A stretch of DNA of 18,400 nucleotides from a virus. Lineage: Duplodnaviria > Heunggongvirae > Uroviricota > Caudoviricetes. Shown here piece by piece: positions 1-18,400 of this stretch (its first letter is position 1; each line of letters begins with the position of its first letter). Where the stretch lies: IMG/VR virus record IMGVR_UViG_2718218131_000010, positions 1 to 18,400 of that record; one strand, written 5' to 3'. Position numbers and translations under genes: made by a program. The notes under the pieces are model-generated. The model made no database searches. It was not told the origin of the DNA and saw only the letters and a program-made list of their open reading frames with translations.

Positions 1-582
1 ATGAAAGGCGAAGTGAAAGAGCGCGGCATGATTTTTAACGATGAGATGGTCCGGGCAATTCTTGGCGGGAATAAAACACAGACTCGCAGGATTGTTGAAG
101 AAAAATTCTATGGACGGGCAGTGGCCGCAGAGTTGCTTGCCAAGCATTGTCCATATGGTCAACCGGGCGATCGTATTTGGGTTCGCGAAACCTACCGGGT
201 ACATGGCAAAGCGACGGACGTCGCAACGCTGGTTTATCGCGCAAGTGTGCGTAACTCCTGGACAGAACAAACGCACCGGGTTCCGGTCGAGGTTTGTAAT
301 AAACCAGTATCAGAAAAGTGGACGCCATCAATTCACATGCCGCGCTGGGCATCGCGCATTCTTCTGGAAATTACCAACGTGCGCGTTGAGCGGTTGAACG
401 ATATCAGCGAATGCGATGCAAGGACTGAGGGCGCACCAACAGAATCGACCCTCATTGGCGATAAGCATTACCCAGGTTTCCGTAGCCTATGGAAATCAAT
501 TTATGGCGAAGATAGTTGGAACGCTAATCCCTGGGTGTGGGTAATCGAGTTTGAGCGTATTCAGGGGGCAACCAGTGAGTGA
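1..582 (+). CDS. ASCH/PUA-like domain protein (possibly 5' truncated at window edge; alternative start at 28)
   Basis: ORF track 193 aa; N-terminal MIFNDEMVRAILGGNKTQTRR...RIWVRETY resembles the ASCH-fold signature (GxKTxExR followed by beta strand). Stop TGA 580-582 overlaps the next gene start. Family assignment from memory of the motif, not a search. Confidence 0.5.
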   Translation: MKGEVKERGMIFNDEMVRAILGGNKTQTRRIVEEKFYGRAVAAELLAKHCPYGQPGDRIWVRETYRVHGKATDVATLVYRASVRNSWTEQTHRVPVEVCNKPVSEKWTPSIHMPRWASRILLEITNVRVERLNDISECDARTEGAPTESTLIGDKHYPGFRSLWKSIYGEDSWNANPWVWVIEFERIQGATSE

Positions 583-2985: not shown

Positions 2986-2986
2986 T

Positions 2987-4485: not shown

Positions 4486-4844
4486 GAGTTGCAGATCACA
4501 TCAAACACCTTGAAAGAATTATCGAAAACGGTGAACTCTTAAGAGATCAGATGAGACGCACGGCAGAAGTCAGAGAGGCGATAATCCGCAGTCAGGCTGG
4601 TAAATTAAAGCAATTGTCAGAGATTAACGCGCTATACAAGAACAGACGTAACCGGGCGGCGCTGCGGCTTCAGAAAGCACGTAATGAAATTAAATTGGTG
4701 GAGGCAAAACTGAAAAAACAGATTCAGCGTTACGATCAGCAAGATGCTTTTTATGCCGCCATCAAGGCGGCTGCTAATGAAATAGGCATCTGGAAGTTGC
4801 TGGTGGAGAAAGCAAAGACGAAGTTAAATGCCAACGAAAGCTGA
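4482..4844 (+). CDS. hypothetical coiled-coil protein (120 aa)
   Basis: ORF track; ATGA overlap with upstream gene; K/R/E-rich heptad-like composition. Confidence 0.55.
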   Translation: MRVADHIKHLERIIENGELLRDQMRRTAEVREAIIRSQAGKLKQLSEINALYKNRRNRAALRLQKARNEIKLVEAKLKKQIQRYDQQDAFYAAIKAAANEIGIWKLLVEKAKTKLNANES

Positions 4845-4918
4845 ACTACAGGTACCCACCAGCACATACAGAAAATGATTGTTTCCACATCAAGGAGATT
4901 TTAATGTTTCACTGAACA

Positions 4919-5056
4919 TTAAGTAAGCCAGTGCATAATTCCATTTTTTACTGACCTTAAAAGCAAAATCAAAACGATGATGAGGATGATCGCCAGAATC
5001 TGGCTAATAACAGGCGCATCTAAAAATGCACTCAGGAACTGAAAAAAAGCAGTCAT
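4919..5056 (-). CDS. candidate 45-aa hydrophobic single-TM peptide (MTAFFQFLSAFLDAPVISQILAIILIIVLILLLRSVKNGIMHWLT)
   Basis: Hand-translated minus-strand ORF below the 60-aa track cutoff; ATG at 5056-5054 with AGGA 9 nt upstream; one strongly hydrophobic helix followed by basic residues; stop at 4921-4919. Confidence 0.3.
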   Translation of the reverse strand: MTAFFQFLSAFLDAPVISQILAIILIIVLILLLRSVKNGIMHWLT

Positions 5057-5097
5057 TAAGGTGGTTCCTTGTCAAATGTAAAGGAGCACTTGCTCAC

Positions 5098-5126
5098 GTT
5101 GACGTAGAAACCCAACCCCTATATAG
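5098..5126 (+). promoter_or_regulatory. near-consensus sigma70 promoter (TTGACG-17 bp-TATAGT)
   Basis: -35 TTGACG 5098-5103, 17-bp spacer, -10 TATAGT 5121-5126; divergent from the small peptide gene; may drive hot via a long leader or a small RNA/ORF (5155-5352). Confidence 0.4.
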
Positions 5127-5505
5127 TTGGATTCGGTGAAAGAAAGTCGTTAACGTGAGCTTACGGCACATGTTTTCGGAACAACATCAGGGAACGGCTA
5201 ATTCCTTGATGCGGATGGGGTCTGTAATGCAGACCCTATCTATTAACGTCATGATTGCATCTCAAATTTTCTCCTTATCTTCATTAATCAAAATTCATTT
5301 CATTTGTGAAACATCACAATATTTAGAAAATGGCCCTCTTGCAAGTGCATAACTTTGTGGATAAATCAGGAAGAAAAAAGTTGATTCTGCGCACGGCAAG
5401 GCAGATAAGCTGTGCACAAAAATCAATGGGAGAAGAAAAAAAATTAAAAGTTACTTTGCTGGTTAAATAATAGTCGTTACTCAATTATTCTGGATGGGAT
5501 TTGAT

Positions 5506-5757
5506 ATGCACGATTGGAATATTGCAGCTAAAAGTCAGGAAGAACGGGATAAGGTTAACGTTGATCTGGCTGCCAGCGGTGTGGCGTACAAAGAGCGATT
5601 GAACATACCTGTCATAGCTGAACAGGTAGCCCGCGAGCAACCAGAGAATCTGCGCACCTATTTCATGGAACGGCTACGGCACTACCGGCAGTTAAGCCTC
5701 CAGTTGCCAAAAGGGAGCGATCCGGCATATCAGAAAGATGATGCCGTAAAGAAATAG
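5506..5757 (+). CDS. hot: Hot, homolog of DNA polymerase III theta subunit (HolE)
   Basis: [43 protein letters not shown] closely parallels E. coli HolE ([43 protein letters not shown]). Start at 5506 preferred (GGGA SD); in-frame alternative ATG at 5494. Confidence 0.85.
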
Positions 5758-5763
5758 CGGTAG

Positions 5764-6336
5764 TTAACCGTTTTGAACTTCTCGTATCCTGGCAATGACA
5801 GCTTCATGTTGGGCTTGGATAGCGGCTTTTTCGTTTTCAAGTCGGGCAATAGACATCTCTAATTCTTTGCTGTACCAGGCGAGTTGGGCCAGGTTCATCC
5901 GGTTGTGGTCGAGAGTTGGAGACACTTCGACGCGATCCCTTTCTTCCTGTTTTAATGAGAAGAGATTCATCTCATCCCTTGAGGAAAATTCAGCAACAAT
6001 TTCTTGTTGATGATCCGGTCGCTGCGGCATCCTCGCCAGTATAAATGGCGGTTCTTTTGAAAACATGAATGTCGGTTCAGAACGTGTTTTCACCCATCTA
6101 GCCTGCTGTCTTTCGGCAAGTTCACAGGCTTCATCATAGTTATTTGCCAAACCAAGCACGGATGGACGGTCCCACGCGCCACCATTCAGACAATAAACAA
6201 CAATTTTCCCGTCATGTTCTGTAACCCCATAGGGATGGTCCCACCAGGCGTCCAGCTGAGCTTTAGAGCGTTTCTCGTTAGGAGTGCAGTCAAAATTTTT
6301 GGGCAATACAGGATCGAGAGGAATGCGATTAGGCAT
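5764..6336 (-). CDS. hypothetical protein (190 aa), divergent from humD; position matches P1 lxr
   Basis: ORF track; lies between hot and humD as in the P1 gene order hot-lxr-humD (recalled, not verified by sequence). Confidence 0.55.
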   Translation of the reverse strand: MPNRIPLDPVLPKNFDCTPNEKRSKAQLDAWWDHPYGVTEHDGKIVVYCLNGGAWDRPSVLGLANNYDEACELAERQQARWVKTRSEPTFMFSKEPPFILARMPQRPDHQQEIVAEFSSRDEMNLFSLKQEERDRVEVSPTLDHNRMNLAQLAWYSKELEMSIARLENEKAAIQAQHEAVIARIREVQNG

Positions 6337-6471
6337 AGCTAATTCCTTATTAACTGATTGGCAACGAGGTTACGCTGATCCGTTGGTGATGAATAGTAGC
6401 AAAGAGCACAAAATCATCAGCGGTGGTTGATGTACGTAACGCGTTTGCACCAAAGGTGTCCCTTTAATGTA

Positions 6472-6491
6472 TACTGTATAAATGAACAGTA
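6472..6491. promoter_or_regulatory. LexA (SOS) box TACTGTATAAATGAACAGTA
   Basis: Matches the CTGT-N8-ACAG consensus exactly; 20 bp upstream of humD ATG; overlaps a TATAAA/TATACT -10 candidate with TTGCAC as a possible -35 at 6445-6450. Confidence 0.85.
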
Positions 6492-6510
6492 TTATTGAGG
6501 TGAAAACGCT

Positions 6511-6900
6511 ATGGGCTTCCCTTCTCCTGCGGCGGATTATGTTGAAAGCAGAATTTCTCTTGATCAGCAACTAATCAGGCATCCATCAGCGACCTACTTC
6601 ATGCGGGCGGCAGACAGCCATCACCGTGAGGGAATATTGCAGGGTGCTTTGCTGGTGGTTGATTCCTCGCTTACTCCGGTTGATGGTTCGCTGCTTGTCT
6701 GCGCTATGGAGGGTGAATATCGCATAAAGAGATACCGAAAGTATCCGCGCCAGCACCTGGAGGATTTAAGCACCGGGAAGAAAGAGGCGTTACCAGTAGA
6801 TGACGATGGTTACACGGGTAGTAATGCCGTGTTTGGTGTGATCACTCATGTCATCAATGATGCCCGGAGTGGGGAGTTTGATGATTGTCCGGTCATTTAA
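6511..6900 (+). CDS. humD: HumD, UmuD' homolog (translesion synthesis accessory)
   Basis: 129 aa; UmuD-like peptidase S24 C-terminal region (LLVCAMEGEYRIKRY...VFGVITHVIN); LexA box immediately upstream. Confidence 0.9.
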   Translation: MGFPSPAADYVESRISLDQQLIRHPSATYFMRAADSHHREGILQGALLVVDSSLTPVDGSLLVCAMEGEYRIKRYRKYPRQHLEDLSTGKKEALPVDDDGYTGSNAVFGVITHVINDARSGEFDDCPVI

Positions 6901-6972
6901 GCTGCAAAGTGCTGGTGCTTTATGCCTGTGAAGTTTATAATTGTGTACACATAACGAGTACACGAGGTGTTT

Positions 6973-7194
6973 ATGCAATCCATTAACTTCCGTACCGCGC
7001 GCGGCAACCTTTCTGAAGTGCTCAACAATGTTGAAGCCGGGGAAGAGGTTGAAATCACCCGCAGAGGCCGTGAGCCAGCAGTAATTGTCAGCAAGGCTAC
7101 TTTTGAAGCCTACAAAAAAGCGGCGCTGGATGCTGAATTTGCATCCCTGTTTGACACCCTGGACTCCACCAACAAGGAACTGGTTAACCGATAA
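6973..7194 (+). CDS. phd: Phd antitoxin (prevent host death)
   Basis: [49 protein letters not shown]... matches P1 Phd; TAATG overlap with doc. Confidence 0.95.
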
Positions 7195-7574
7195 TGAGGC
7201 ATATATCACCGGAAGAACTTATTGCGCTTCATGATGCGAATATAAACCGCTACGGCGGCTTGCCGGGAATGTCAGATCCGGGTAGGGCAGAGGCCATTAT
7301 CGGGAGAGTTCAGGCCAGAGTTGCCTACGAAGAGATCACCGACCTTTTCGAAGTCTCCGCCACCTACCTGGTGGCTACAGCGAGAGGGCATATATTCAAT
7401 GATGCCAATAAGCGTACCGCGCTAAACAGTGCGCTGTTATTTCTACGCCGTAACGGGGTGCAGGTATTTGATTCACCTGAACTGGCAGACCTTACTGTAG
7501 GCGCTGCGACTGGCGAGATATCTGTATCTTCTGTCGCCGACACGTTACGTAGATTGTATGGTTCTGCGGAGTAG
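7194..7574 (+). CDS. doc: Doc toxin (death on curing, Fic-fold kinase)
   Basis: 126 aa [22 protein letters not shown]...[11 protein letters not shown]... matches P1 Doc; 1-nt overlap with the phd stop. Confidence 0.95.
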
Positions 7575-7578
7575 ATTA

Positions 7579-7758
7579 ATGGCACGCAAATACAACAAAT
7601 TGTCCCGTGAAGCGTTAAAGATGCTTCTTGATGGCGTGAGTCGCCGCAAGGTAAAGCAATACCTGGTTGGTAAGCAAATTGGTGCCAGGACCGCTATTGC
7701 TGTGTTATGCCGTCAGGAAATGGTTGTGCTTAAACAGAGAATGCCGGGCAGCAGATAA
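7579..7758 (+). CDS. pdcA: small basic protein downstream of doc (pdcA by synteny)
   Basis: ATG 7579 with GGAG 7 nt upstream (track ORF begins at 7558 inside doc); symbol assigned from P1 gene order only. Confidence 0.5.
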   Translation: MARKYNKLSREALKMLLDGVSRRKVKQYLVGKQIGARTAIAVLCRQEMVVLKQRMPGSR

Positions 7759-7785
7759 AGCCCAATCAGTGATGAAAGGTGTGAT

Positions 7786-8829
7786 GTGAAAGCCGTAATT
7801 ACTCCCTTTGTACAAAAAGTGCTTGGCGTCGCCACATTCAAAGTGGATCAGGAAGTCAGAAAGCTGGTGGAGGCTGGCCGTAAATTTATTATGGAGCCGG
7901 TGCCGCGTGAGTTAATCGAGCACATGGACGACGGCCTCGTTGTTTCCGAGCAAACTATGGCAACAAATGAGGCGTTGCAGCCGTTTTTTAACAGCGATGA
8001 ACTGTTTCGCCGTATTGGTGGAATTGACTCGCTGGTGGCGTGGTTGCGCAGGAAAGAGGGGCAATGCCAGGCCGCAGATCGTAGTTGGTGTGACAACCAT
8101 ATTGTCCACGCTGAACGAGACAATAGCGCGGTGTTGTTGTGCTGGCATCACGATAACCATTACCGGATGCGTGGTTTTAATGAGCTGAAAGAAACGCTGC
8201 ATAATAATCGCGTTAACTGGATACTGGATGTCGCCCGTCAGGAAATGGGGCTTTCAGATGGCCATGATTTAAGTATTCAGGAACTGTGCTGGTGGGCTTT
8301 CATGCGCAACATGATGCACCTGATGCCGGAAGAAGTTTGCCGTATATCAATAAATAAGATGAAAGCCGCAACGCAGGATAGCGGACCTCTGAAAGAGGCG
8401 GATATTCGCCCGTATGACGATCGCGCTACAGCATATGTTCAGATGATGGAAGAACGCGCCGCGCCGATGCGTGCAAAAGTATGCCCTGTGGATGTAGACT
8501 CCGACCCTGGCATGGCGCATTTCAAAATACCAAAACTTCAATCGCTAAAATTGCCCGAGTACATGGACTTTGTGGCTTCCCGTCCATGCTGTGGCTGTGG
8601 AGCTGCGGGAGCTGGCGCTCACATTACGCCTTATATCGTTCGTCATAGTCGATTATGCGCGCATGACATTTATGCTATTCCTCTGTGCCAGTCATGCCAG
8701 CGTGATATTGAGCGTGACCTCGATAATTGGGAGAAGACGCACGGTAGGCTGGCGATGCATCAACGATTGTTCTTTGATTACGCGCTTGGAGTCGGCGCTA
8801 TCACAAGTCACTCGTCGAGCGTTAGATAA
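7786..8829 (+). CDS. pdcB: hypothetical protein 347 aa (pdcB by synteny); C-terminal Cys/His-rich region
   Basis: GTG start 7786 with AAAGG RBS; C-terminus contains [12 protein letters not shown]...C...H...C..C, a possible metal-binding/HNH-like region; symbol from P1 gene order. Confidence 0.6.
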
Positions 8830-8830
8830 A

Positions 8831-8847
8831 ATTGCTCTAATGTATTG
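8831..8847 (+). promoter_or_regulatory. C1 repressor operator-like site upstream of lpa (ATTGCTCTAATGTATTG)
   Basis: 13/17 match to the P1 C1 operator consensus ATTGCTCTAATAAATTT, including the invariant ATTGCTCTAAT core. Confidence 0.6.
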
Positions 8848-8917
8848 CTATTTCTTTAATCGAGGGTATTATATTCCACGTTGATTAGTTGACATGGGCT
8901 AATCAGTAGGTGACAGG

Positions 8918-9370
8918 ATGTTACTTAACTGGCAGGGACGCCACTTCATGGAAATAAATCACTCACGAATAACATCGTACGAGATTGCGGATTACATGAT
9001 CCGCACTAAATCTCTTCTATCAGCGAAAGAACTCGCAGCAATTCTTGAAAAGGAATACCCGCATCTGGATGTCGATAAGCGCGATGTTTATCTGCGCTTA
9101 AAGGCTATCGCTGTGTCTAAGTATTCGTCTGTTTTGATTGATGACAGTACACGCCCACGTAGATTTCAGATCCACTCTCTGAATCCTGAATTCTTTCGCC
9201 GCAGCCGCGCTCCGCGCCGGTTTGATGAAAAACTCCAGAACGAACTCTATATGACGCAGGACGAAAAGGAACGCCGGGAGCACCAGCCTTGGGTAATGGC
9301 GCGTCAACTTTTCAATAAGGTGGCCCGTCAGCACCGTCATTACGGTAATGCCACATCCGCACGTATCTGA
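8918..9370 (+). CDS. lpa: Lpa, late promoter activator
   Basis: 150-aa ORF directly preceded by a C1 operator and followed by pacA, as in P1; AGGTGA RBS before ATG 8918. Confidence 0.75.
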   Translation: MLLNWQGRHFMEINHSRITSYEIADYMIRTKSLLSAKELAAILEKEYPHLDVDKRDVYLRLKAIAVSKYSSVLIDDSTRPRRFQIHSLNPEFFRRSRAPRRFDEKLQNELYMTQDEKERREHQPWVMARQLFNKVARQHRHYGNATSARI

Positions 9371-9380
9371 TTGATTGCTT

Positions 9381-9399
9381 GCCCGTTCCGGGCCTTTTG
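9381..9399 (+). terminator. putative rho-independent terminator after lpa
   Basis: GCCCG-TTC-CGGGC stem-loop followed by CTTTTG. Confidence 0.4.
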
Positions 9400-9455
9400 A
9401 CATGTGACTTTCGTTACCCTCGCGTCAAAAAGAGTTTTTACGAAAGGAAGCATAA

Positions 9456-10649
9456 GTGACCTGGGACGATCACAAGAAGAATTTTGCTCGCCTGGCGCGA
9501 GATGGTGGTTACACCATCGCACAGTATGCCGCCGAGTTTAATCTTAACCCTAATACCGCACGTCGTTATCTCCGTGCCTTCAAAGAAGACACCAGGACTA
9601 CGGACAGCCGCAAGCCAAATAAGCCAGTCAGGAAGCCACTAAAAAGCATGATCATTGATCACTCTAATGATCAACATGCAGGTGATCACATTGCGGCTGA
9701 AATAGCGGAAAAACAAAGAGTTAATGCCGTTGTCAGTGCCGCAGTCGAGAATGTGAAGCGCCAAAATAAGCGCATAAATGATCGTTCAGATGATCATGAC
9801 GTGATCACCCGCGCCCACCGGACCTTACGTGATCGCCTGGAACGCGACACCCTGGATGATGATGGTGAACGCTTTGAATTCGAAGTTGGCGATTACCTGA
9901 TAGATAACGTTGAAGCGCGGAAGGCCGCGCGCGCTATGTTGCGTCGGTCCGGGGCCGATGTTCTGGAAACCACTCTTCTGGAAAAGTCTCTTTCTCATCT
10001 CCTTATGCTGGAGAATGCCAGGGATACGTGTATTCGCCTGGTGCAGGAAATGCGCGATCAGCAAAAAGACGATGATGAAGGTACTCCGCCTGAATACCGT
10101 ATCGCGAGCATGCTAAACAGCTGTTCCGCGCAGATAAGCAGCCTGATCAACACCATTTACAGCATCCGGAATAACTATCGAAAAGAAAGCCGGGAGGCGG
10201 AAAAGCACGCTTTGTCTATGGGGCAAGCTGGCATTGTTAAGCTGGCATACGAACGAAAGCGTGAAAATAACTGGTCAGTGCTGGAAGCAGCTGAATTCAT
10301 CGAGGCGCATGGCGGGAAAGTTCCGCCCCTGATGCTGGAGCAAATCAAAGCCGATCTGCGTGCTCCTAAGACCAATACCGATGATGAGGAAAGGCAGACA
10401 GCCGTCGGCGGCCCTTCTCTTGAAGATCTGGACAAAGTTGCGCGAGAACGGGCCGCCAACCGCCGCGCCGATGCCGCATTGTGGATTGAGCAGCGTAGGG
10501 AAGAAATCGCCGATATCGTTGATACAGGCGGTTATGGAGATGTTGATACTGAAGGTGTATCAAACGACCCATGGCTGGAACAAGACCTGGACGAAGACGA
10601 GGAGGAAGACGAAGAAGTTACCCGCAAGCTATACGGGGATGATGATTAA
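9456..10649 (+). CDS. pacA: PacA, terminase small/pac-recognition subunit
   Basis: 397 aa; contains the pac site internally; acidic C-terminal tail; GTG start with AAGGAAG RBS. Confidence 0.9.
9649..9807. other. pac packaging site: 4 + 3 TGATC(A/G) hexamers with Dam GATC cores
   Basis: TGATCA at 9649, 9656, 9668, 9683 and TGATCG/TGATCA at 9779, 9791, 9802 inside pacA; matches the known bipartite P1 pac architecture. Confidence 0.85.
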
Positions 10650-12133
10650 TGGCCAGAAGTTGCGTAACGGATCCACGTTGGCGCGAGCTGGTGGCGCTAT
10701 ATCGTTATGACTGGATTGCGGCCGCTGATGTTTTGTTTGGGAAGACACCAACCTGGCAGCAGGATGAGATCATTGAGTCCACGCAGCAGGACGGCAGTTG
10801 GACAAGTGTGACCTCCGGCCATGGTACTGGTAAGTCGGATATGACGAGTATCATTGCAATACTCTTCATCATGTTTTTCCCCGGCGCTCGCGTCATTCTG
10901 GTCGCTAACAAAAGACAGCAAGTCCTTGATGGTATTTTCAAATATATAAAGAGCAATTGGGCTACTGCTGTTAGCAGATTCCCGTGGTTGTCGAAGTATT
11001 TCATTCTTACAGAAACGTCTTTTTTTGAGGTGACTGGCAAGGGTGTTTGGACAATATTGATAAAGTCCTGTCGCCCCGGAAATGAGGAGGCGTTGGCTGG
11101 TGAACACGCCGATCATCTCTTGTATATCATCGACGAAGCGTCGGGTGTGAGTGATAAAGCATTCAGTGTGATAACAGGTGCGCTGACCGGTAAGGATAAC
11201 CGTATTCTGCTTCTTTCCCAGCCTACGCGACCTTCAGGCTATTTCTACGATTCACACCACAGACTAGCTATTCGCCCGGGAAATCCTGATGGATTGTTTA
11301 CTGCGATAATACTGAATAGTGAAGAATCTCCGCTTGTAGATGCAAAATTTATACGAGCAAAACTTGCGGAGTATGGCGGTCGTGATAACCCCATGTACAT
11401 GATCAAAGTACGTGGTGAATTTCCCAAATCTCAAGATGGCTTTCTTCTTGGTCGTGATGAGGTTGAGCGGGCGACGCGGCGAAAGGTCAAGATTGCCAAA
11501 GGATGGGGCTGGGTTGCATGTGTTGACGTTGCTGGTGGCACAGGACGAGATAAGTCCGTTATTAATATCATGATGGTGTCCGGCCAGCGAAATAAACGCC
11601 GTGTAATCAACTATCGTATGCTGGAATACACAGACGTTACAGAAACGCAGTTAGCCGCCAAGATTTTCGCAGAATGTAACCCAGAACGGTTCCCGAACAT
11701 AACCATAGCTATTGATGGCGATGGCTTGGGGAAATCGACGGCTGATCTGATGTACGAACGCTATGGTATTACCGTCCAGCGTATCCGCTGGGGTAAAAAG
11801 ATGCACAGCCGTGAAGATAAAAGCCTTTATTTCGATATGCGCGCTTTCGCGAATATTCAGGCGGCAGAAGCTGTAAAATCAGGGCGTATGCGGCTTGATA
11901 AGGGGGCTGCGACTATAGAGGAAGCATCAAAGATACCGGTCGGGATAAATTCCGCAGGTCAATGGAAGGTGATGTCAAAGGAAGATATGAAGAAAAAACT
12001 CAACCTGCACTCACCGGACCATTGGGATACATATTGTTTCGCTATGTTGGCGAACTATGTACCCCAAGATGAAGTGCTTAGCGTCGAAGACGAAGCGCAG
12101 GTTGATGAAGCTCTGGCATGGCTTAATGAGTAA
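10649..12133 (+). CDS. pacB: PacB, terminase large subunit
   Basis: 494 aa; start overlaps the pacA stop (TAATG); position and size as in P1. Confidence 0.9.
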
Positions 12134-12136
12134 AAA

Positions 12137-12153
12137 CTTGCTCTAATAAATTG
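12137..12153 (+). promoter_or_regulatory. C1 operator-like site (CTTGCTCTAATAAATTG)
   Basis: 15/17 match to the C1 operator consensus; sits 4 bp after the pacB stop at the head of the antirepressor module. Confidence 0.65.
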
Positions 12154-12154
12154 T

Positions 12155-12310
12155 GTTTTTTTGGCTGCCGATGTTACATTGAACCTGAACTCTTGCGCCT
12201 TGAGGCATTTTCGGTTTATGCTTATCAGGCACCTCATTAAAACGGGTGCCGGGATTGGAACCCCGGATAATGCAAAAGGCGACACAGACGCCAAAAGCGT
12301 CTTTTTTTGT
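12155..12310 (+). ncRNA. candidate C1-controlled small RNA or leader segment ending at an intrinsic terminator
   Basis: No ORF; contains GGCUGCC (12164-12170) and a hairpin CCGGG-AUUGGAAC-CCCGG (12249-12266); ends with GACGC-CAAAA-GCGTC followed by T7 (12287-12308). Confidence 0.3.
12287..12308 (+). terminator. rho-independent terminator (GACGCCAAAAGCGTC + TTTTTTT)
   Basis: 5-bp GC stem, 5-nt loop, 7 T run; flanked by GACACA / TGTGTC extending the stem. Confidence 0.6.
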
Positions 12311-12339
12311 GTCATGCCATCGCACAGCCATACGTAGCA

Positions 12340-12493
12340 CATAGCTCCGAGATCAATGGTAGTGCTGGCTGGGCTGCCGAAAGGCAGGCCGGTTCCCTTT
12401 TGCGCCGGTAGTTCCAACCCAGTCAGTGCTACCGCCATTGAGATTGGAACCTCACGCGGTAGCTCCTAAAGTTAGCAAAAGGAGGCTGCCATT
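12340..12493 (+). promoter_or_regulatory. structured leader upstream of the icd-like ORF with anti-SD and kissing-loop elements
   Basis: Local hairpin CUGCC-GAAA-GGCAG (12373-12387); hairpin CGGTAG...CTACCG with GUUCCAAC in its loop (12405-12435); second AUUGGAACC (12443-12451); GGCUGCC overlapping the SD GGAGG (12481-12490). Confidence 0.4.
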
Positions 12494-12715
12494 ATGGCTA
12501 CTATCCCTACCCCAACTCACCCTGAATTTATCTGGCGCTTTTACTCCTGCCAGAAACGTCACTATCACTTCGTTATCGCAACAACAGAAGATGAGGCCCG
12601 CTCTCAGCTTCCTGACGCCCCATGTATTTTCTCTGCCCGTTTTTCCACTGATTCACGCAATTCTCTCAGTTACTGGTGCCTCCCTGTTAACGCTTCTGCT
12701 CAGGAGGGACTATGA
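12494..12715 (+). CDS. small ORF translationally coupled to the antirepressor (icd-like position)
   Basis: 73 aa; GGAGG 8 nt upstream; stop TGA overlaps the ant ATG (ATGA), the same coupling architecture as icd-ant in P1 immI. Confidence 0.45.
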   Translation: MATIPTPTHPEFIWRFYSCQKRHYHFVIATTEDEARSQLPDAPCIFSARFSTDSRNSLSYWCLPVNASAQEGL

Positions 12716-13824
12716 GAACGTCATTAGTCACCCGTGAAGAGATGATCGAGGCAATTGAACGGCACACTGCCTGTATCAGTACCAGGGATATACCGGGCGT
12801 TATTGCCAACTACTTCATGATCACCAAACAACTTTACCGGAGAAAGGACAAGAACGCGGTTCACCGCATCCTGCTAACCGATATCCGTGAATACCTGCTC
12901 GAACAGGGTCATCTGAATTACGCAACCGTCGCAGCCGAAGCACGCAAGGAGGCACACAGAATGAAAGCAACTAACGTTAAATCAGAAAAAATTCATGCAC
13001 CTTCAGTTCAGGAATCGGAACTGGTGGTTGTTCAGAATCAGCCGGATGAAATTCCCGTTCTGGAATGGCAGGGAGTACGTGTCGTGACAACCGAAACTCT
13101 TGCTAGAGGGTATGGGGTCGATGAAGCCAATATTCGCAACAATTTGTCTCGCAACCTTGACCGCTTTGAAGAAGGTAAGCATTACTTTCTTCTAACTGGT
13201 TTAAAATTAAGAGAATTTAAGAACAGAGTAACCGGAAGTTACTCTGTTGGTAAGAACGCCAGAAGCCTTACACTCTGGACAGAGCGCGGCGCTGCACGCA
13301 TGTCTAAGATCGTGGACACAAATGAAGCATGGGCATTCTTTGAAAAACTGGAAGACAGCTACTTCCGGCAAAAAGAACAGCAACCGGTTGCAATCCCCCA
13401 GACGCTTCCAGAAGCTCTGCGCCTGGCTGCCGAACTGGCTGAACAAAAGCAGCTTCTGGAACAGAAAGCCCACCAGCTAAATCAGCAGCTGGTGGCCGCC
13501 GCTCCTAAAGTCGATTTTGCCGACCGGGTATCAGTAGCTAAAGGGATCCTGATTGGGAATTTTGCAAAGGTTGTTGGACTTAAGCAAAACGCGCTGTTTG
13601 CCTGGTTACGGGAGAACGGCATCCTGATAGCGTCCGGTGGACGTAAAAATGTGCCGTTCCAGCAGTACATCAATGCGGGGTATTTCACGGTGAAAGAAGT
13701 GGTGCTGGATGATGAAGATGGCTACCAGATACGGTTGACGCCTCAATTAACGGGTAAAGGCCAGCAGTGGTTGACGCGTAAACTGCTCGATGCTGGCTTG
13801 TTAAAACCGGTGGCGGCTGAATAA
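12712..13824 (+). CDS. phage antirepressor (Ant-like; ORF6N N-terminal and KilA-C/ANT C-terminal domains)
   Basis: 370 aa; VRVVTTETLARGYGVDEANIRNNLSRNLDRFEEGKHYF...LTLWTERGAARMSKIVDTNEAWAFFEKL (ORF6N-like) and FAKVVGLKQNALFAWLRENGIL...VPFQQYINAGYFTVKE (KilA-C/ANT-like). Confidence 0.75.
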   Translation: MRTSLVTREEMIEAIERHTACISTRDIPGVIANYFMITKQLYRRKDKNAVHRILLTDIREYLLEQGHLNYATVAAEARKEAHRMKATNVKSEKIHAPSVQESELVVVQNQPDEIPVLEWQGVRVVTTETLARGYGVDEANIRNNLSRNLDRFEEGKHYFLLTGLKLREFKNRVTGSYSVGKNARSLTLWTERGAARMSKIVDTNEAWAFFEKLEDSYFRQKEQQPVAIPQTLPEALRLAAELAEQKQLLEQKAHQLNQQLVAAAPKVDFADRVSVAKGILIGNFAKVVGLKQNALFAWLRENGILIASGGRKNVPFQQYINAGYFTVKEVVLDDEDGYQIRLTPQLTGKGQQWLTRKLLDAGLLKPVAAE

Positions 13825-13833
13825 TGGAAGAAT

Positions 13834-13862
13834 GCCCGGTTGATGCCGGGCATAATTTATTG
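13834..13862. terminator. convergent terminator hairpin between ant-like gene and c1
   Basis: GCCCGG-TTGATG-CCGGGC followed by ATAATTTATT; overlaps the c1 stop codon region. Confidence 0.5.
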
Positions 13863-14708
13863 CGCGCTTTCGGGGTTGTCGTTTACTGGCTGCCCCTTCT
13901 TGGTTTTACGGCTGCGCGTAACTGATGCGGCTGACTTAACCTTTTTCTCTTCGCGAGTGATGGCAATTTGTTTTTTTACATTTTCAATATCTGCCAGGCG
14001 ATATATTTTTGCTTGCGGCCAGCGGTCGCAGATGATCGGTTCTATGGAGTCATAAAGGCTAAATTTTGCTTTTTCGAATTCACCGTTGATGATAATTCCA
14101 TCACGGAGAGTTTCATCGCAGATAAACACGCCACACAGTGGCACATGGTAACTAACTGATTTACCATCATTGTAGTTAGGGCTACTGGAAATGTAGTGGA
14201 CGCGCAGCATTGTTTCGCTAAAGCCGTGTACGCGCATACGGAATTTTTCATCCTCCGGGTACTGCTTCATTAGCTCTTTTGTTGCTTCCAGGTTCTCTAT
14301 GTATTTCGCACTGTGCTCATTGATCCCCGCGCTTTTTTGGATGCGAATGTCCTTATCAATCAGATGAATAATGCGGCCAGCGGTCATGTTGACGCTGTTC
14401 ACAGCTTCTGTCTGATAAGTTGTAACCTTACGCACACCGCGAAGGATGTTAGGCACAGGATATAAAATAGTCTTTGGGATATTGAGATCTGGGTACTGTT
14501 CCAGTTCCCGCGCCATTAAAGTCCATTTATCAATTTCTGCCTGAATGCTGTCCGTTTCTTTGAACGGCAGAACGACAACCGGGCGTACAGGACGACCGTC
14601 GCTGGCGGCATCAACGTGTTGGGCGCGTGCAACAGCTTTTTTTAGAAAGAGATCCCTGAAGCTGACGAACTCCTGGTACAGTTGTTCGCCGTAGACATAA
14701 TTTATCAT
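13857..14708 (-). CDS. c1: C1 repressor of lysogeny
   Basis: 283 aa MINYVYGEQLYQEFVSFRDLFLKK... matches P1 C1 as recalled; multiple C1 operators in the vicinity. Confidence 0.95.
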   Translation of the reverse strand: MINYVYGEQLYQEFVSFRDLFLKKAVARAQHVDAASDGRPVRPVVVLPFKETDSIQAEIDKWTLMARELEQYPDLNIPKTILYPVPNILRGVRKVTTYQTEAVNSVNMTAGRIIHLIDKDIRIQKSAGINEHSAKYIENLEATKELMKQYPEDEKFRMRVHGFSETMLRVHYISSSPNYNDGKSVSYHVPLCGVFICDETLRDGIIINGEFEKAKFSLYDSIEPIICDRWPQAKIYRLADIENVKKQIAITREEKKVKSAASVTRSRKTKKGQPVNDNPESAQ

Positions 14709-14802
14709 TGATCCTCCTCCAGAATTGACATGGCCAACAACTCACAGCGGATAACACTGAGAGTTGTTGGGCACCATTATAGAAGGATCTAACGAAAATA
14801 AT

Positions 14803-14819
14803 AGATTTATTAGTGCATT
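14803..14819 (-). promoter_or_regulatory. C1 operator-like site between coi and c1
   Basis: Minus-strand AATGCACTAATAAATCT, 14/17 match to the consensus. Confidence 0.5.
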
Positions 14820-14821
14820 TA

Positions 14822-15028
14822 TTATGAGTCTGGCTGGTTAGTGGTCATGAGATATTCAATTGTGTCAGTGAGATCATCTAGGTCGTCGGGGGTGATACGG
14901 TACTCCTGATTGGATATCTTTGAGTAGTGTTCAGCAATGGCGCGAGCAGCGTCGGTTTCGGTGGGATCTACAGATAAAGCGTTAGAGCAATGTCTAACGT
15001 CGTCGATAGTTGGTGGAATGAAAGCCAT
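14822..15028 (-). CDS. coi: Coi, C1 inactivator
   Basis: 68-aa acidic ORF immediately upstream of c1 on the same strand, as in P1 immC. Confidence 0.8.
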   Translation of the reverse strand: MAFIPPTIDDVRHCSNALSVDPTETDAARAIAEHYSKISNQEYRITPDDLDDLTDTIEYLMTTNQPDS

Positions 15029-15250
15029 AATTATGCCTCACTGTATTTACAACACAGAGCCTGAAGCTCTGACCTACTGTTTCACCCATGATCCATGCTG
15101 GGGTTATCTAACAACATTGCGCTGTGTGTAAGATGAGCAATGCATAGCTGTAATGCCCTGTTTGCTCATTTCCTTCTGAGCCGCTCTACAACACTGAAGA
15201 CACATTAAATAGTGAATCCAAAGTCGTATTACGAAACGGCGGCAAAGCTA

Positions 15251-15267
15251 TAATTTATTAGAGCAAT
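15251..15267 (-). promoter_or_regulatory. C1 operator (Op99-type), minus orientation
   Basis: Reverse complement ATTGCTCTAATAAATTA, 16/17 match. Confidence 0.65.
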
Positions 15268-15333
15268 TGTCAAACAACTATGAAAAACAATCCAGTTTTT
15301 GGCTGGTGGAGTGGGATTTTACTCTCAAAATTT

Positions 15334-15350
15334 ATTGCTCTAATGATTCT
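15334..15350 (+). promoter_or_regulatory. C1 operator-like site (ATTGCTCTAATGATTCT)
   Basis: 14/17 match with intact ATTGCTCTAAT core; lies in the imcA/imcB control region between coi and loxP. Confidence 0.55.
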
Positions 15351-15393
15351 TGATTTTTGTGCGCAGCTGGACGTAAACTCCTCTTCGGACCTA

Positions 15394-15427
15394 ATAACTT
15401 CGTATAGCATACATTATACGAAGTTAT
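15394..15427. other. loxP site-specific recombination site
   Basis: Exact ATAACTTCGTATA-GCATACAT-TATACGAAGTTAT (13-bp inverted repeats and 8-bp spacer). Confidence 0.98.
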
Positions 15428-15446
15428 CTTAAGGGTTATTGAACAT

Positions 15447-15517
15447 GATCAATTTACCTGTAAATCCATACAGTTCAATACATTACAGGTCAAATAGTGA
15501 TCACTTGATCATTTGAT
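15447..15517. promoter_or_regulatory. Dam GATC cluster in the cre leader/promoter region
   Basis: GATC at 15447, 15499, 15507 and 15514 (TGATCA-type) between loxP and cre; cre promoters are known to be Dam-sensitive. Confidence 0.5.
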
Positions 15518-15615
15518 CAAGGTTGCGCTACGTAAAATCTGCGAAATGTTGGCAGTGTTAGTGCTCCAGATTTCGCGTAGCGCACTTAGCACCACCAATC
15601 AATCAGAGGTGAAAA

Positions 15616-15837
15616 ATGGGATATTCAGCTGCTAAAGTGTCCACTCATATTGAGCTTGAGAAAAACCGTGGTTACTGGCGGGCAAAAGGGTTTGATCGTG
15701 ATAGTTGTCAACTGTCATTATCGCGCGGTGAAGAGAAAATAGAACGCACGCGCGGTCGCTGGCGTTTCTATGACGAGAACCATAAACAGGTAAAGGCAGA
15801 GCCGATCCTGTACACTTTACTTAAAACCATTATCTGA
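15616..15837 (+). CDS. candidate small basic protein (73 aa) in the cre leader
   Basis: ATG 15616 with GAGGTG 5 nt upstream; stop 8 nt before the cre ATG; I do not recall an annotated gene here in P1, so this may be non-coding leader. Confidence 0.3.
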   Translation: MGYSAAKVSTHIELEKNRGYWRAKGFDRDSCQLSLSRGEEKIERTRGRWRFYDENHKQVKAEPILYTLLKTII

Positions 15838-15844
15838 GTGTTAA

Positions 15845-16876
15845 ATGTCCAATTTACTGACCGTACACCAAAATTTGCCTGCATTACCGGTCGATGCAAC
15901 GAGTGATGAGGTTCGCAAGAACCTGATGGACATGTTCAGGGATCGCCAGGCGTTTTCTGAGCATACCTGGAAAATGCTTCTGTCCGTTTGCCGGTCGTGG
16001 GCGGCATGGTGCAAGTTGAATAACCGGAAATGGTTTCCCGCAGAACCTGAAGATGTTCGCGATTATCTTCTATATCTTCAGGCGCGCGGTCTGGCAGTAA
16101 AAACTATCCAGCAACATTTGGGCCAGCTAAACATGCTTCATCGTCGGTCCGGGCTGCCACGACCAAGTGACAGCAATGCTGTTTCACTGGTCATGCGGCG
16201 GATCCGAAAAGAAAACGTTGATGCCGGTGAACGTGCAAAACAGGCACTGGCGTTCGAACGCACTGATTTCGACCAGGTTCGTTCACTCATAGAAAATAGC
16301 GATCGCTGCCAGGATATACGTAATCTGGCATTTCTGGGGATTGCTTATAACACCCTGTTACGTATAGCCGAAATTGCCAGGATCAGGGTCAAAGATATCT
16401 CACGTACTGACGGTGGGAGAATGTTAATCCATATTGGCAGAACGAAAACGCTGGTTAGCACCGCAGGTGTAGAGAAGGCACTTAGCCTGGGGGTAACTAA
16501 ACTGGTCGAGCGATGGATTTCTGTCTCTGGTGTAGCTGATGATCCGAATAACTACCTGTTTTGCCGCGTCAGAAAAAATGGTGTTGCCTCGCCATCATCC
16601 ACCAGCCAGCTATCAACTCGCGCCCTGGAAGGGATTTTTGAAGCAACTCACCGATTGATTTACGGAGCTAAGGATGACTCTGGCCAGAGGTACCTGGCCT
16701 GGTCTGGACACAGTGCCCGTGTCGGAGCCGCGCGAGATATGGCCCGCGCCGGAGTTTCAATACCGGAGATCATGCAAGCTGGTGGCTGGACCAACGTAAA
16801 TATTGTCATGAACTATATCCGTAACCTGGATAGTGAAACAGGGGCAATGGTGCGCCTGCTGGAAGATGGCGATTAG
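15845..16876 (+). CDS. cre: Cre tyrosine recombinase
   Basis: 343 aa MSNLLTVHQNLPALPVDATSDEVRKNLMDMFRDRQAFSEHTWKMLLSVCRSWAAWCKLNNRKWFPAEPEDVRDYLLYLQARGLAVKTIQQHL... matches Cre; begins 418 bp after loxP. Confidence 0.98.
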   Translation: MSNLLTVHQNLPALPVDATSDEVRKNLMDMFRDRQAFSEHTWKMLLSVCRSWAAWCKLNNRKWFPAEPEDVRDYLLYLQARGLAVKTIQQHLGQLNMLHRRSGLPRPSDSNAVSLVMRRIRKENVDAGERAKQALAFERTDFDQVRSLIENSDRCQDIRNLAFLGIAYNTLLRIAEIARIRVKDISRTDGGRMLIHIGRTKTLVSTAGVEKALSLGVTKLVERWISVSGVADDPNNYLFCRVRKNGVASPSSTSQLSTRALEGIFEATHRLIYGAKDDSGQRYLAWSGHSARVGAARDMARAGVSIPEIMQAGGWTNVNIVMNYIRNLDSETGAMVRLLEDGD

Positions 16877-16893
16877 CCATTAACGCGTAAATG

Positions 16894-16910
16894 ATTGCTC
16901 TAATTCTTTG
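16894..16910 (+). promoter_or_regulatory. C1 operator-like site upstream of cra (ATTGCTCTAATTCTTTG)
   Basis: 13/17 match with intact ATTGCTCTAAT core; position corresponds to P1 Op2. Confidence 0.55.
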
Positions 16911-16926
16911 ATATTTATGGCGACAT

Positions 16927-17214
16927 ATGAGAAAGAATTTCAACATCGACGGAAAATATGTAGTGCTGTCAGTGAGCACTAATATTCAGTCGCCAGCCGT
17001 CATTGTCACTGTAAAGCTGAGCGATAGAATGCCTGATATTGACTCAATATCCGTTGCGTTCCCTGTCAGAAGTATGCGTAGTGCTGAACATTTCGTGATG
17101 AATGCCACCGAGGAAGAAGGGGGCACCTCAGAAAACGGAATCTATGGTCACTCCCGTTTTTGCAACACCGATTTTGACGACAAGTTGGCTTGCTTGAATC
17201 TATCCGGCGTCTGA
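16927..17214 (+). CDS. cra: Cra (C1 repressor-controlled function), by position
   Basis: 95-aa ORF immediately downstream of cre and a C1 operator, as in P1; weak RBS, so the start is uncertain. Confidence 0.6.
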   Translation: MRKNFNIDGKYVVLSVSTNIQSPAVIVTVKLSDRMPDIDSISVAFPVRSMRSAEHFVMNATEEEGGTSENGIYGHSRFCNTDFDDKLACLNLSGV

Positions 17215-17395
17215 ATGGGATTTTATTCCCGCGCCTTGATGAGTTCCGCGCCTGATGAACCTCCAGAAAATATACGGCTTCAATGAGCCTTTCCGTTTTA
17301 CAGGTTCCTCAACAGGCCGGTGGGCCGTTAGTATCATCAATATCAGTATTCGCAAAACCAGATCAGTAATTCTTTAAACCGGTGTATTTCTGCCG
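17215..17395 (-). ncRNA. candidate noncoding 3' flank of the IS110-family element (possible bridge/guide RNA region)
   Basis: 180 bp with no ORF between cra and the transposase stop; contains tandem CCGCGCCT(T)GATGA repeats (17229-17258); which IS end carries the bridge RNA depends on subgroup, which I cannot determine. Confidence 0.25.
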
Positions 17396-18400
17396 TTATG
17401 CTACATAAGTTTGCTGTCGTGCCGTTAGGGCCCAGGCTATTCTGGCCAGCTTGTTTGCCAGAGCACAAGTGACGACAAAGTTGCTTTTCCGGCACAGTAA
17501 ATCCCTGACCCAATCGGCCAATTTGCCAGACTGGTGTTCCAGTTTTTGTATGAATACCCTGGCACACTGAACCAACAAAGTTCGGATCTTTTTATTACCT
17601 CGCTTACTAATTCCCAGCAATGTCGTCCTACCTCCCGTGCTGTACTGCCGAGGTACAAGCCCTGTTGCCGCCGCAAAGTCACGGCTGCTGGCGTACTGCT
17701 TCCCGTCGCCAATCTCAGTTGAAATAGTACTCGCTGTCAGTGTTCCGACGCAGGGAATGCTCAGCAAGCGCTGTCCAACCTCATCTTCGTCCAACTTTCG
17801 TTTCAACTGGGATTCCAGATCTTTAATCTGCTCAACAAGATAGTGATAATGCTGTTGTAATTTCAGCAATAACTGGCTGAGGTAAAGAGGCAAACTATTA
17901 TCCTCAAGAATGGTACTCAGTCGGCTAATAACGGCAGCTCCTCGGGGAACGCTAATGCCAAATTCCAGCAGAAAAGCATGCATTTGATTGGTTGTTTTCA
18001 CCTTATCCTGAACCAGGGATTCACGGACACGATGCAGAGCCCGCATTGCCTGCTGAGATTCCGTTCTGGGCTGCACAAAACGCATAGACGGACGCGATGC
18101 AGCTTCACAAATAGCTTCGGCGTCGACAAAGTCGTTTTTATTGCTTTTAACGAACGGGCGGACAAATTGTGGTGATATCAGCTTTGGGGAATGCCCCAAC
18201 TCTTCCAACTTGCGTGCCATAAAGTGAGAACCGCCACAGGCTTCCATTGCGATGGTTGTAGCGGGGCATGTCGCCAAAAATTCGATCAACTTTGGCCGGG
18301 TAAATTTTTTACGGTAAACAGCCTTCCCGCGACGATCCTGGCAATGAATATGGAAAGAGTTTTTACCCAGATCGATACCAATGAGCGCAATGTTTTCCAT
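17396..18400 (-). CDS. IS110-family (DEDD) transposase/recombinase, 334 aa; start codon at the window edge
   Basis: N-terminal MENIALIGIDLGKNSFH (RuvC-like fold with IGID motif) and a C-terminal region typical of the IS110 family; resembles IS4321/IS5075-type enzymes from memory. Confidence 0.9.
   Translation of the reverse strand: MENIALIGIDLGKNSFHIHCQDRRGKAVYRKKFTRPKLIEFLATCPATTIAMEACGGSHFMARKLEELGHSPKLISPQFVRPFVKSNKNDFVDAEAICEAASRPSMRFVQPRTESQQAMRALHRVRESLVQDKVKTTNQMHAFLLEFGISVPRGAAVISRLSTILEDNSLPLYLSQLLLKLQQHYHYLVEQIKDLESQLKRKLDEDEVGQRLLSIPCVGTLTASTISTEIGDGKQYASSRDFAAATGLVPRQYSTGGRTTLLGISKRGNKKIRTLLVQCARVFIQKLEHQSGKLADWVRDLLCRKSNFVVTCALANKLARIAWALTARQQTYVA

Follow-up and report, generated by a model that had tools for sequence, protein, structure and literature searches.

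Between lox and cre in a P1-like phage-plasmid: the known cre control region, a small cra-cre operon and a conserved palindrome

The window analysed here, a stretch of 18,400 nt comprising positions 1 to 18,400 of IMG/VR record IMGVR_UViG_2718218131_000010, carries on its + strand, in this order, loxP (15394-15427), a 73-codon open reading frame (15616-15837) and cre, which encodes 343 amino acids (15845-16876). The lox site consists of a perfect 13-nt inverted repeat (13-bp arms) around the 8-bp spacer GCATACAT, and aligns to the lox of X03453 and AF234172. Comparison of the region with P1, P7, SJ46 and other punaviruses returned 97-99% identity, the matched stretches of these phages bearing annotated cra, cre and lox, and an annotated cra lies under the nucleotide match in 20 phage records. 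Relative to the P1 cre regulatory region (X03453; AF234172/NC_005856) this is the same locus, 97% identical from lox to the start of cre. The feature tables of AF234172 and X03453 hold, at homologous positions, Dam sites 1-3, the promoter P2coi, a LexA box, the rightward promoters pR1, pR2 and pR3, cra (ORF1) and cre, and the window has the same hexamers for the three rightward promoters and the same LexA box, P2coi and Dam sites 1-3. Judged by its sequence, the whole interval is ordinary in the sense that it is the control region already described for cre, the recombinase gene of P1-like phage-plasmids. Our explanation for the interval as a whole, which we regard as very probable, is that of a known cre regulatory region in which a leftward and a rightward control unit diverge from each other and a small cra-cre operon follows. 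The original study of this region in P1 is reportedly that of Sternberg, Sauer, Hoess and Abremski in 1986 (J Mol Biol 187:197), with the sequence in GenBank as X03453.

The leftward promoter, P2coi, is an annotated sigma-70 promoter that was transferred by alignment from AF234172 41-68 to 15451-15478 on the - strand (-10 at 15451-15456, -35 at 15473-15478). The LexA box (15456-15475; AF234172 protein_bind 46-65) has its CTGT-N8-ACAG pattern at 15458-15473, between the two P2coi hexamers; LexA control is assigned by the annotation. The window has two occurrences of this pattern, where 0.22 would be expected, and the box is kept in seven of the eight diverged lineages compared, L009 having CTGG. 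GATC site 1 (15447-15450), which is P1 Dam site 1 (37-40 in the P1 annotation, by alignment), adjoins the P2coi -10. Five of the eight lineages keep it; L016 and L018/L019 have lost it, and the close relatives L027-L029 have GATT at this position. Mean pairwise identity over the eight lineages reaches 0.73 at GATC site 1 and 0.79 at the LexA box, compared with 0.36-0.49 in the spacers of the leader. In the leftward unit, P2coi, controlled through the LexA box and with GATC site 1 next to its -10, would fire across lox toward coi/c1.

Four GATC sites are present upstream of cre, as the initial annotation had it, at 15447, 15499, 15507 and 15515; the end coordinate that it gave for the cluster was off by one, since the last site spans 15515-15518. 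These are the sites annotated in P1 as "Dam methylation sites within the regulatory region of cre", the difference being one further GATC here, at 15499, which is GACC in reference P1 and GATC in many relatives. This site and P1 Dam sites 2 and 3 (15507 and 15515) fall in three 8-bp TGATCA repeat units (15498-15521), one of which is deleted in L026/L027. By count, the cluster is only modestly unusual: 38 of 500 dinucleotide shuffles of the window contained at least four GATC in some 72-bp stretch, and 23 of 500 contained at least three within 20 bp. Conservation across lineages is the stronger evidence, with at least two GATC kept just upstream of the inverted repeat described below in seven of the eight lineages, and none in L016.

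The first rightward promoter, pR1 (P3cre; 15513-15538, + strand; AF234172 104-129, X03453 147-180), overlaps these repeats. Its -35, TTGATC at 15513-15518, holds GATC 15515, an alternative -35 at 15505-15510 holds GATC 15507, and the -10 is TAAAAT at 15533-15538, so that the spacing of the hexamers is non-optimal with either choice (14 or 22 nt). The other two promoters on this strand are pR2 (P2cre; 15692-15721; AF234172 283-312), inside cra, whose -35 TTGATC holds GATC 15694, and pR3 (P1cre; 15809-15833; AF234172 400-424), with the -35 TGTACA, at the 3' end of cra. Because a consensus scan of the region picked out no strong promoter, the annotated rightward promoters are weak, non-consensus ones. 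The pR1 -10 is not kept in L009, L012 and L020, which leaves the position of their transcription start uncertain, and the pR2 -35 hexamer is not conserved beyond the P1 clade. At the pR3 -35, the synonymous positions of CTGTACACT (15808-15816) are invariant in the eight lineages, with the other synonymous sites saturated.

Classical Dam-methylation-sensitive promoters, namely those of the IS10 transposase (pIN), trpR and sulA, carry a GATC in a core hexamer. The locus resembles them in having GATC inside the annotated -35 of both pR1 and pR2 and in retaining the GATC cluster in most lineages; it differs from them in that the GATCs come as tandem 8-bp TGATCA units, whose copy number is three here and two in L026/L027. 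To go by its title and the GenBank notes, the 1986 study reportedly found that full Dam methylation damps pR1 and that under-methylation raises it. We infer a similar effect in this element, in which the rightward unit would start from a weak, Dam-sensitive pR1 with its -35 inside the TGATCA repeats.

The 73-aa frame had been picked out from the sequence as a possible upstream ORF with a strong Shine-Dalgarno sequence, ending 8 nt before the cre ATG and matching no gene known to be annotated at this spot in P1. The ORF is there, with an ATG start at 15616 and GAGGTG at 15606-15611 (an RBS is annotated at the homologous 245-252 of X03453), and it does end just before cre, with 7 nt between its stop and the cre ATG. 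It is, in contrast, an annotated gene: cra in AF234172/NC_005856 (CDS 207..428 of AF234172), where it is described as "putative cre associated function", and ORF1 in X03453. The same ORF in P7 is called upf0.2 in the full genome record AF503408 and cra in the fragment AY751747, and cra is drawn between loxP and cre in published maps (PMC2409434, PMC5786510). The gene of the window differs from P1 cra at three nucleotides, two of them amino-acid changing, which leaves 71 of the 73 residues identical to P1 Cra (AAQ13977).

Six to eight diverged lineages, whose loci were gathered by searching for contigs that encode Cra relatives (a direct scan of genome contigs gave three loci), yielded dN/dS values of 0.04-0.27 for cra with saturated dS. 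Changes were seen at 28-37 of about 48 synonymous sites, and twenty-odd codons that are invariant in their amino acid vary at synonymous positions. Because of these ratios at saturated dS, cra reads clearly as a real protein-coding gene under purifying selection, more than leader sequence, despite the annotated pR2 and pR3 within it and despite its disruption in close relatives, two observations that the initial annotation had named as ones that would refute its reading. The frame is otherwise maintained, the exceptions being L027, where a 1-nt deletion shifts it, and L029, where higBA stands in place of cra. With these two losses, and with cra found non-essential for plaque formation by CRISPRi (PMC10695390), the gene is dispensable, and coupling of cre to cra specifically is therefore not obligatory.

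Cra is a small, basic, Arg/Lys/Trp-rich protein with invariant RGYWRAKG and RG.W motifs. It matches phrog_804, a PHROG of unknown function, at 8e-35 over the full length of the HMM, and has no match in Pfam, NCBIfam or PADLOC. Two AlphaFold models (pLDDT 66 and 61) differ in the N-terminal half, and a Foldseek comparison of the models with the PDB gave no match with E<0.8. Annotation pipelines label Cra as "creatininase", an annotation error worth flagging. The family extends to SSU5-like phage-plasmids and to lytic Kuttervirus-type phages of about 157 kb, whose homologues share the motif E[IL]EK..GYWRAKGF and have in common with Cra its GYWRAKGF core. In these remote relatives the neighbour of cra is a Rep3 replication gene (SSU5-like phage-plasmids) or a Pyr_excise gene (the lytic phages), with no recombinase nearby. 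A family-wide "Cre-associated" linkage was therefore rejected: linkage to cre is seen in the punavirus members only, where, in all sampled lineages with an intact cra, the gene directly precedes cre, apart from the variant L028, in which orf131 intervenes.

The start of cre has no real Shine-Dalgarno sequence: over 11 loci, the best anti-Shine-Dalgarno match upstream of cre was GAG (3 nt) or none. It also lies no more than 7 nt from the preceding stop codon, or overlaps it, in every lineage, whether the preceding gene is cra, orf131 or higA. Both traits are those of translationally coupled gene pairs, and coupling of cre to the preceding gene is plausible from the sequence; the difference from such pairs is that cre also has promoters, pR2 and pR3, inside the upstream gene. 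In the proposed operon, pR1 would transcribe cra and cre together. Since cre lacks a Shine-Dalgarno sequence of its own and the cra stop is only 7 nt away, its translation from this long transcript would most likely depend on ribosomes coming straight from cra (termination-reinitiation). Since pR2 and pR3 are embedded in the cra coding sequence, part of cre expression would bypass the coupling, and the pR3 transcript may be a nearly leaderless cre mRNA.

Between the GATC repeats and cra lies the inverted repeat (15524-15584). It was first described as a 15-bp imperfect repeat paired through the hexamer CGAAAT (15542-15547) with a 9-nt bulge. The repeat is real, but that register is not the conserved one, the hexamer being specific to the clade of this window (TGAAAA in P1). 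The conserved register has ungapped 18-nt arms, 15524-15541 and 15567-15584, complementary at 16 of 18 positions and separated by a 25-nt loop, and forms the core of a 63-nt element (15523-15585) that shows no indels in 12 sequences from eight lineages. Identity across the eight lineages is 0.77 in the left arm, 0.89 in the right arm and 0.47 in the loop, and the half-sites GCTACG and CGTAGC are invariant, and at a fixed distance, in the 12 sequences. The loop of the window has six substitutions relative to P1, and the 1986 sequence X03453 differs from AF234172 by two gaps, both within the right arm. The palindrome is not a feature in either of these entries; it is, by sequence comparison, the one unannotated feature of the region and the best-conserved non-coding block of the leader. 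It straddles the -10/start region of pR1, upstream of the ORF and overlapping the annotated -10, and would run to about +40 as the right-hand edge of the conserved leader. No second copy was found in the window, and P1-type copies in IMG/VR were found only beside lox, in a search whose loose half-site pattern returned mostly chance matches. A regulon for the half-site GCGCTACGT was also sought and rejected, as nothing above chance appeared in the window.

The initial annotation had suggested that the 73-aa ORF may couple or attenuate the expression of cre; in a full version of this reading the ORF is a regulatory upstream frame or leader, and the palindrome an attenuator hairpin. The short stop-start gap and the missing Shine-Dalgarno sequence of cre do fit coupling. 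Attenuation, on the other hand, found no support: there are no terminator-like sites in 15300-15950 on either strand, nor a T-run after either arm, so that neither the ORF nor the palindrome is followed by anything resembling a terminator, and a terminator or attenuator was rejected as a reading of the palindrome. The palindrome, moreover, which is the only strong hairpin, precedes the ORF; between the ORF and cre there are only 7 nt. The conservation of the Cra amino-acid sequence through saturated synonymous change is unlike that of a leader peptide, members of the family occur in phages in which no recombinase follows, and the tight junction with cre is kept where higBA replaces cra or orf131 follows it. 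We consider this reading distinctly improbable.

An alternative that takes cra as a gene has its product serve the Cre-lox module, either as an accessory factor or as a regulator that binds DNA; it might, for instance, control its own expression by binding to the palindrome arms at pR1. The position of intact cra directly before cre in the punaviruses (L028 again with orf131 between), the basic composition and invariant motifs of the protein, and arms conserved in sequence like operator half-sites would all suit such a role. Against it stand the remote relatives beside Rep3 or Pyr_excise genes, the persistence of the palindrome in L029 after loss of cra together with the frameshift in L027, and a protein that matches nothing in the domain and defence databases, with poor, disagreeing models and no fold match. 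A regulatory Cra of this kind seems improbable to us.

A stronger competitor places the function of the palindrome in the RNA, as a hairpin in transcripts starting upstream of 15524. There it would govern how stable the cra-cre mRNA is or how it is processed, by protecting the 5' end or by serving as an RNase III site. The predicted fold is stable (-27 kcal/mol, z = -4.0, with none of 200 shuffles as stable), and all lineages have a strong hairpin (-22 to -31 kcal/mol). Some changes are of the kind expected for a helix: pair 12/52, an A.C mismatch, has been restored to A-U in L003, to G-C in L012 and L020 and to G-U in L009; pair 15/49 switches from A-U to U-A in L009 and L012; and the left arm of L012 shifts toward the right arm at the cost of the -10 hexamer. 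However, the annotated pR1 -10 puts the start inside the loop, so that the left arm would be absent from pR1 RNA, and the 5' UTR initiated there shows no unusual structure (z = +0.34). No significant covariation was detected in the 12 sequences from eight lineages, which gave 85.6% paired against 85.4% in shuffles, with two double-change pairs against 2.5 expected and an RNAalifold covariation term of +0.32. Wobble is not strand-consistent at pair 11/53, where four sequences have U.G and three have C.A, and the arms are conserved by sequence, not by compensation. With covariation no higher than in the shuffle control and no Rfam family matching the palindrome, its reading as a structured RNA was rejected, and a hairpin acting in the transcript is in our view unlikely.

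Our best guess is that the palindrome most likely works as DNA, tuning pR1 in the manner of an operator or through a tendency to extrude a cruciform. A simple operator would not typically have 18-bp arms with 25 bp between them. Downstream of it, directly before the RBS of the first gene of the operon, is another conserved box, CCAATCAATCA (15595-15605, + strand), with an identity of 0.89 across the eight lineages, and in L006 this box is repeated before orf356. The genes between the palindrome and cre vary by lineage, being cra alone, orf356 and cra, orf68, orf356 and cra, cra and orf131, or higBA, and cre is always the last. In L029 the higBA replacement starts right after the right arm, so that the palindrome is kept where cra is lost. 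Both orf356 and orf68 match only PHROGs of unknown function (phrog_7674 and phrog_19934), with no match in Pfam, NCBIfam or PADLOC. There is also a broader proposal, which we advance tentatively and would rate at somewhat below an even chance: the 63-nt palindrome and the CCAATCAATCA box may together form an undescribed control element of a lox-proximal operon, bordering a cargo slot in which cre always comes last, without a Shine-Dalgarno sequence and coupled. This element could be the operator of a regulator (possibly Cra) or a 5' hairpin setting the fate of the mRNA.

A reading in which both the ORF and the palindrome arose in the leader by chance, without a function of their own, would agree with the dispensability of cra, which is sometimes broken or replaced, and with a GATC cluster only marginally unusual by count. 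It is contradicted already by the purifying selection on cra across saturated divergence and by the leader, where the LexA box and both arms of the palindrome stand out as conserved islands from sequence otherwise 36-49% identical; the z of -4 for the palindrome also speaks against it. We regard chance as extremely improbable.

The discovery value of the locus itself is small, as its dissection dates from 1986 and its annotation from the P1 genome of 2004. Comparison across lineages shows more clearly than P1 by itself did the selection on cra, the -35 of pR3 versus that of pR2, the missing RBS of cre and the conservation of the palindrome. For users of Cre-lox, a clone of the native upstream region of cre will also contain cra, a LexA box, a strong palindrome and three promoters, all of them weak.

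The window is a P1-like phage-plasmid, and its positions 1-17140 are 100% identical to the E. coli plasmid NZ_CP148475. It carries loxP (15394-15427, a perfect 13-nt inverted repeat) and cre (15845-16876, 343 aa), which are separated by 417 bp. Searched by megablast against phage records, 15380-15900 matched P1, P7, SJ46, phiW39, RCS47 and others with 97-99% identity, and the ORF beneath these matches is labelled cra ("putative Cre-associated protein"). The P1 record AF234172 annotates three Dam methylation sites "within the regulatory region of cre" (sites 1-3, at 37, 98 and 106). It places the sigma-70 promoter P2coi, which reads leftward and carries a LexA binding site (46-65), at 41-68, and has three promoters that read rightward, P3cre or pR1 (104-129), P2cre or pR2 (283-312) and P1cre or pR3 (400-424); cra occupies 207-428 and cre 436-1467. 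By our alignment with P1, window coordinates equal P1 + 15410 before P1 77 and P1 + 15409 after it. The 1986 record X03453 also shows pR1-pR3 and enters this ORF as "pot. ORF1 (aa 1-73)". The initial annotation had stated that no annotated gene was known at this spot in P1; given these records, that statement was wrong. The finding is therefore a re-discovery of the P1 cre regulatory region, and the earlier observations were accurate apart from the register of the palindrome discussed below. Published maps also place cra between loxP and cre (PMC2409434; PMC5786510), and a genome-wide CRISPRi screen found it non-essential for plaque formation (PMC10695390).

Beyond cre, the c8 homologue (16927-17214) keeps 95% identity to P1 C8 through about 64 codons before it diverges, a transposase of the IS110 family (DEDD_Tnp_IS110 and Transposase_20) follows on the minus strand at 17396-18400, and the identity to NZ_CP148475 stops at 17140, which together suggests that an IS was inserted into c8. 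Sequences at 15249-15265 and 15329-15345, left of lox, and at 16894-16910, after cre, resemble the P1 C1 operator consensus (ATTGCTCTAATAAATTT). The LexA-box-like pattern CTGT-N8-ACAG occurs twice in the window, against 0.22 expected, the second site being CTGTATAAATGAACAG at 6474-6489.

The 73-aa ORF lies at 15616-15837 and, as first described, has a strong Shine-Dalgarno sequence (GAGGTG, four bases before its ATG) and ends close to cre, 7 nt from the cre ATG. P1-like elements of Enterobacteriaceae, among them Salmonella, Klebsiella and Cronobacter, carry homologues with 58-74% identity. Pairwise Nei-Gojobori comparison counted changes at 28-37 of roughly 48 synonymous sites, which amounts to saturation, with dN of 0.09-0.35; the dN/dS of 0.04-0.27 (cre, 0.04-0.09) places the reading frame under purifying selection, and in about twenty codons the amino acid is invariant while the third position varies. 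Because dN/dS is low at saturation and invariant residues have varying third positions, cra is, on these comparisons, a real gene whose conservation does not come merely from the embedded promoters. As for those promoters, CTGTACACT (15808-15816, codons L65-Y66-T67), which includes the annotated pR3 -35 TGTACA, is invariant in eight diverged P1-like lineages; the pR2 -35 TTGATC is not conserved beyond the P1 clade. The cra of one close relative, E. coli O157:H7 pTX376-2 (L027), has lost 1 nt from codon 8 and is thereby a pseudogene.

Cra matched nothing in Pfam, NCBIfam or PADLOC, so "creatininase", the NCBI/PGAP name of the 73-aa protein in hundreds of records from E. coli, Salmonella and Klebsiella, is almost certainly an annotation error that may stem from a confusion of gene symbols. 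AlphaFold models of Cra were poor and mutually inconsistent, and a fold search with them gave no match. The family was extended by searching 1.8 billion representatives with a profile and by a further, word-indexed search; its members carry the motif E[IL]EK..GYWRAKGF...W...LL..I. In SSU5-like phage-plasmids (L021, L025) the family gene closes an operon of small genes and adjoins a Rep3 replication gene, and in lytic Salmonella phages of about 157 kb (L023) it adjoins a Pyr_excise gene. These contexts rule out a family-wide association with Cre, which is thus a property of the punaviruses.

The slot between the leader and cre is variable. All fetched loci of the 58-74% identical cra homologues share the order lox, homologous leader, orf68 where present, orf356, cra, 7 nt and cre; cra in the diverged loci is 71 aa long and has an ATGA overlap with orf356. 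The 356-aa gene (phrog_7674) lies between leader and cra in L006 (1188-2504) and at equivalent positions in L009, L012, L015, L016 and L018-L020, and four of these diverged elements also carry the 68-aa orf68 (phrog_19934) there, whereas P1 lacks both. The sequence CCAATCAATCA...AGAGG..ATGG precedes orf356 in the diverged elements and cra in P1, suggesting that orf356 and orf68 were deleted in the P1 clade. Neither protein matched Pfam, NCBIfam or PADLOC. The slot varies even within close relatives: L028 (NZ_CP027443 19301-19696) has a 131-aa ORF, orf131, inserted between cra and cre and overlapping the cre start, and in L029 (NZ_CP100503 26457-27122) a higB/higA toxin-antitoxin pair replaces cra.

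Whichever gene precedes cre (cra, orf131 or higA), the junction is tight, the cre ATG lying at most 7 nt from, or overlapping, the preceding stop in 11 loci. In these 11 loci the best anti-Shine-Dalgarno match within the 20 nt upstream of this ATG is either a GAG of 3 nt, overlapping the TGA of cra, or missing altogether. Since such stop-start geometry is what termination-reinitiation requires, translational coupling of cre by this route, and with it the coupling idea of the initial annotation, is plausible. The proposal that the ORF may attenuate cre found no support, as 15300-15950 contains no terminator-like site and the one strong hairpin precedes the ORF.

The four Dam sites noted near loxP are present, at 15447, 15499, 15507 and 15515. 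Among 500 dinucleotide shuffles of the window, 38 had four or more GATC within some 72-bp stretch and 23 had three or more within 20 bp; by count alone the cluster is only marginally unusual. The only other clusters of at least four per 72 bp, at 9650-9687 and 9780-9834 (four each), seem to match in layout the P1 pac site with its Dam-regulated hexamer repeats. At the equivalent of 15499 reference P1 has GACC where the window has GATC; because most close relatives, and the two diverged lineages L006 and L018, share the GATC of the window, GACC is probably the derived state. The last three sites form 8-bp TGATCA units, one of which is deleted in the close relatives L026 and L027; L027-L029 have GATT at site 1. 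At least two GATC directly upstream of the palindrome are kept in seven of the eight lineages, L016 having none. In the ENA metagenome contigs L016 and L017 all leader GATC are gone (GAGC, GTTC) and the LexA box and palindrome are retained, which may reflect a host without Dam or relaxed constraint.

Mean pairwise identity across the eight lineages was 0.36-0.49 in the spacer blocks of the leader, 0.56 in the GATC cluster, 0.73 at GATC site 1, 0.77 in the left arm of the palindrome, 0.79 in the LexA box, and 0.89 both in the right arm and in the CCAATCAATCA box that precedes the first ribosome-binding site. The imperfect inverted repeat of the initial annotation is present, but its register did not stand, the CGAAAT hexamer being TGAAAA in P1. 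We find two ungapped 18-nt arms (15524-15541 and 15567-15584), complementary at 16 of 18 positions and 25 nt apart. The 63-nt length (15523-15585) is exact, without indels, in all 12 palindrome sequences; GCTACG/CGTAGC is invariant, both arms are conserved in sequence, and the loop is 47% identical. From lox to the cre start (467 bp, 15394-15860) the window differs from P1 at 13 positions, six in the loop and none in the arms.

As RNA the palindrome would fold at -27 kcal/mol (z = -4.0; 0 of 200 shuffles equally stable). Covariation was not significant (cells paired 85.6% vs 85.4% in shuffles; RNAalifold term +0.32), with a few suggestive repairs at pairs 12/52 and 15/49 and wobble positions that are not strand-consistent, and there was no Rfam match; we consider a role as an RNA hairpin, in transcripts starting further upstream, rather unlikely. 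The annotated pR1 -10 (TAAAAT, 15533-15538) lies inside the left arm, so a pR1 transcript would start in the loop and contain only the right arm, and the pR1-initiated 5' UTR had no unusual structure (z = +0.34). The palindrome might instead act by DNA-level control of pR1, a possibility to which we give somewhat less than an even chance. The 1986 P1 sequence has two gaps relative to AF234172 (2004 genome) in the right-arm GCGC (15576-15579; X03453 about 218-221), as compression on a sequencing gel at a hairpin would produce.

In IMG/VR, P1-type copies of the palindrome occur only beside lox, and it is absent from the feature tables of AF234172 and X03453. In L029 the higBA cassette starts directly after the right arm, so the palindrome bounds the conserved control region. 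We conclude that it is a functional element, undescribed or at least unannotated, and the interest that remains in this locus lies in the conserved palindrome and in the cargo slot, variable in content, that separates it from cre.
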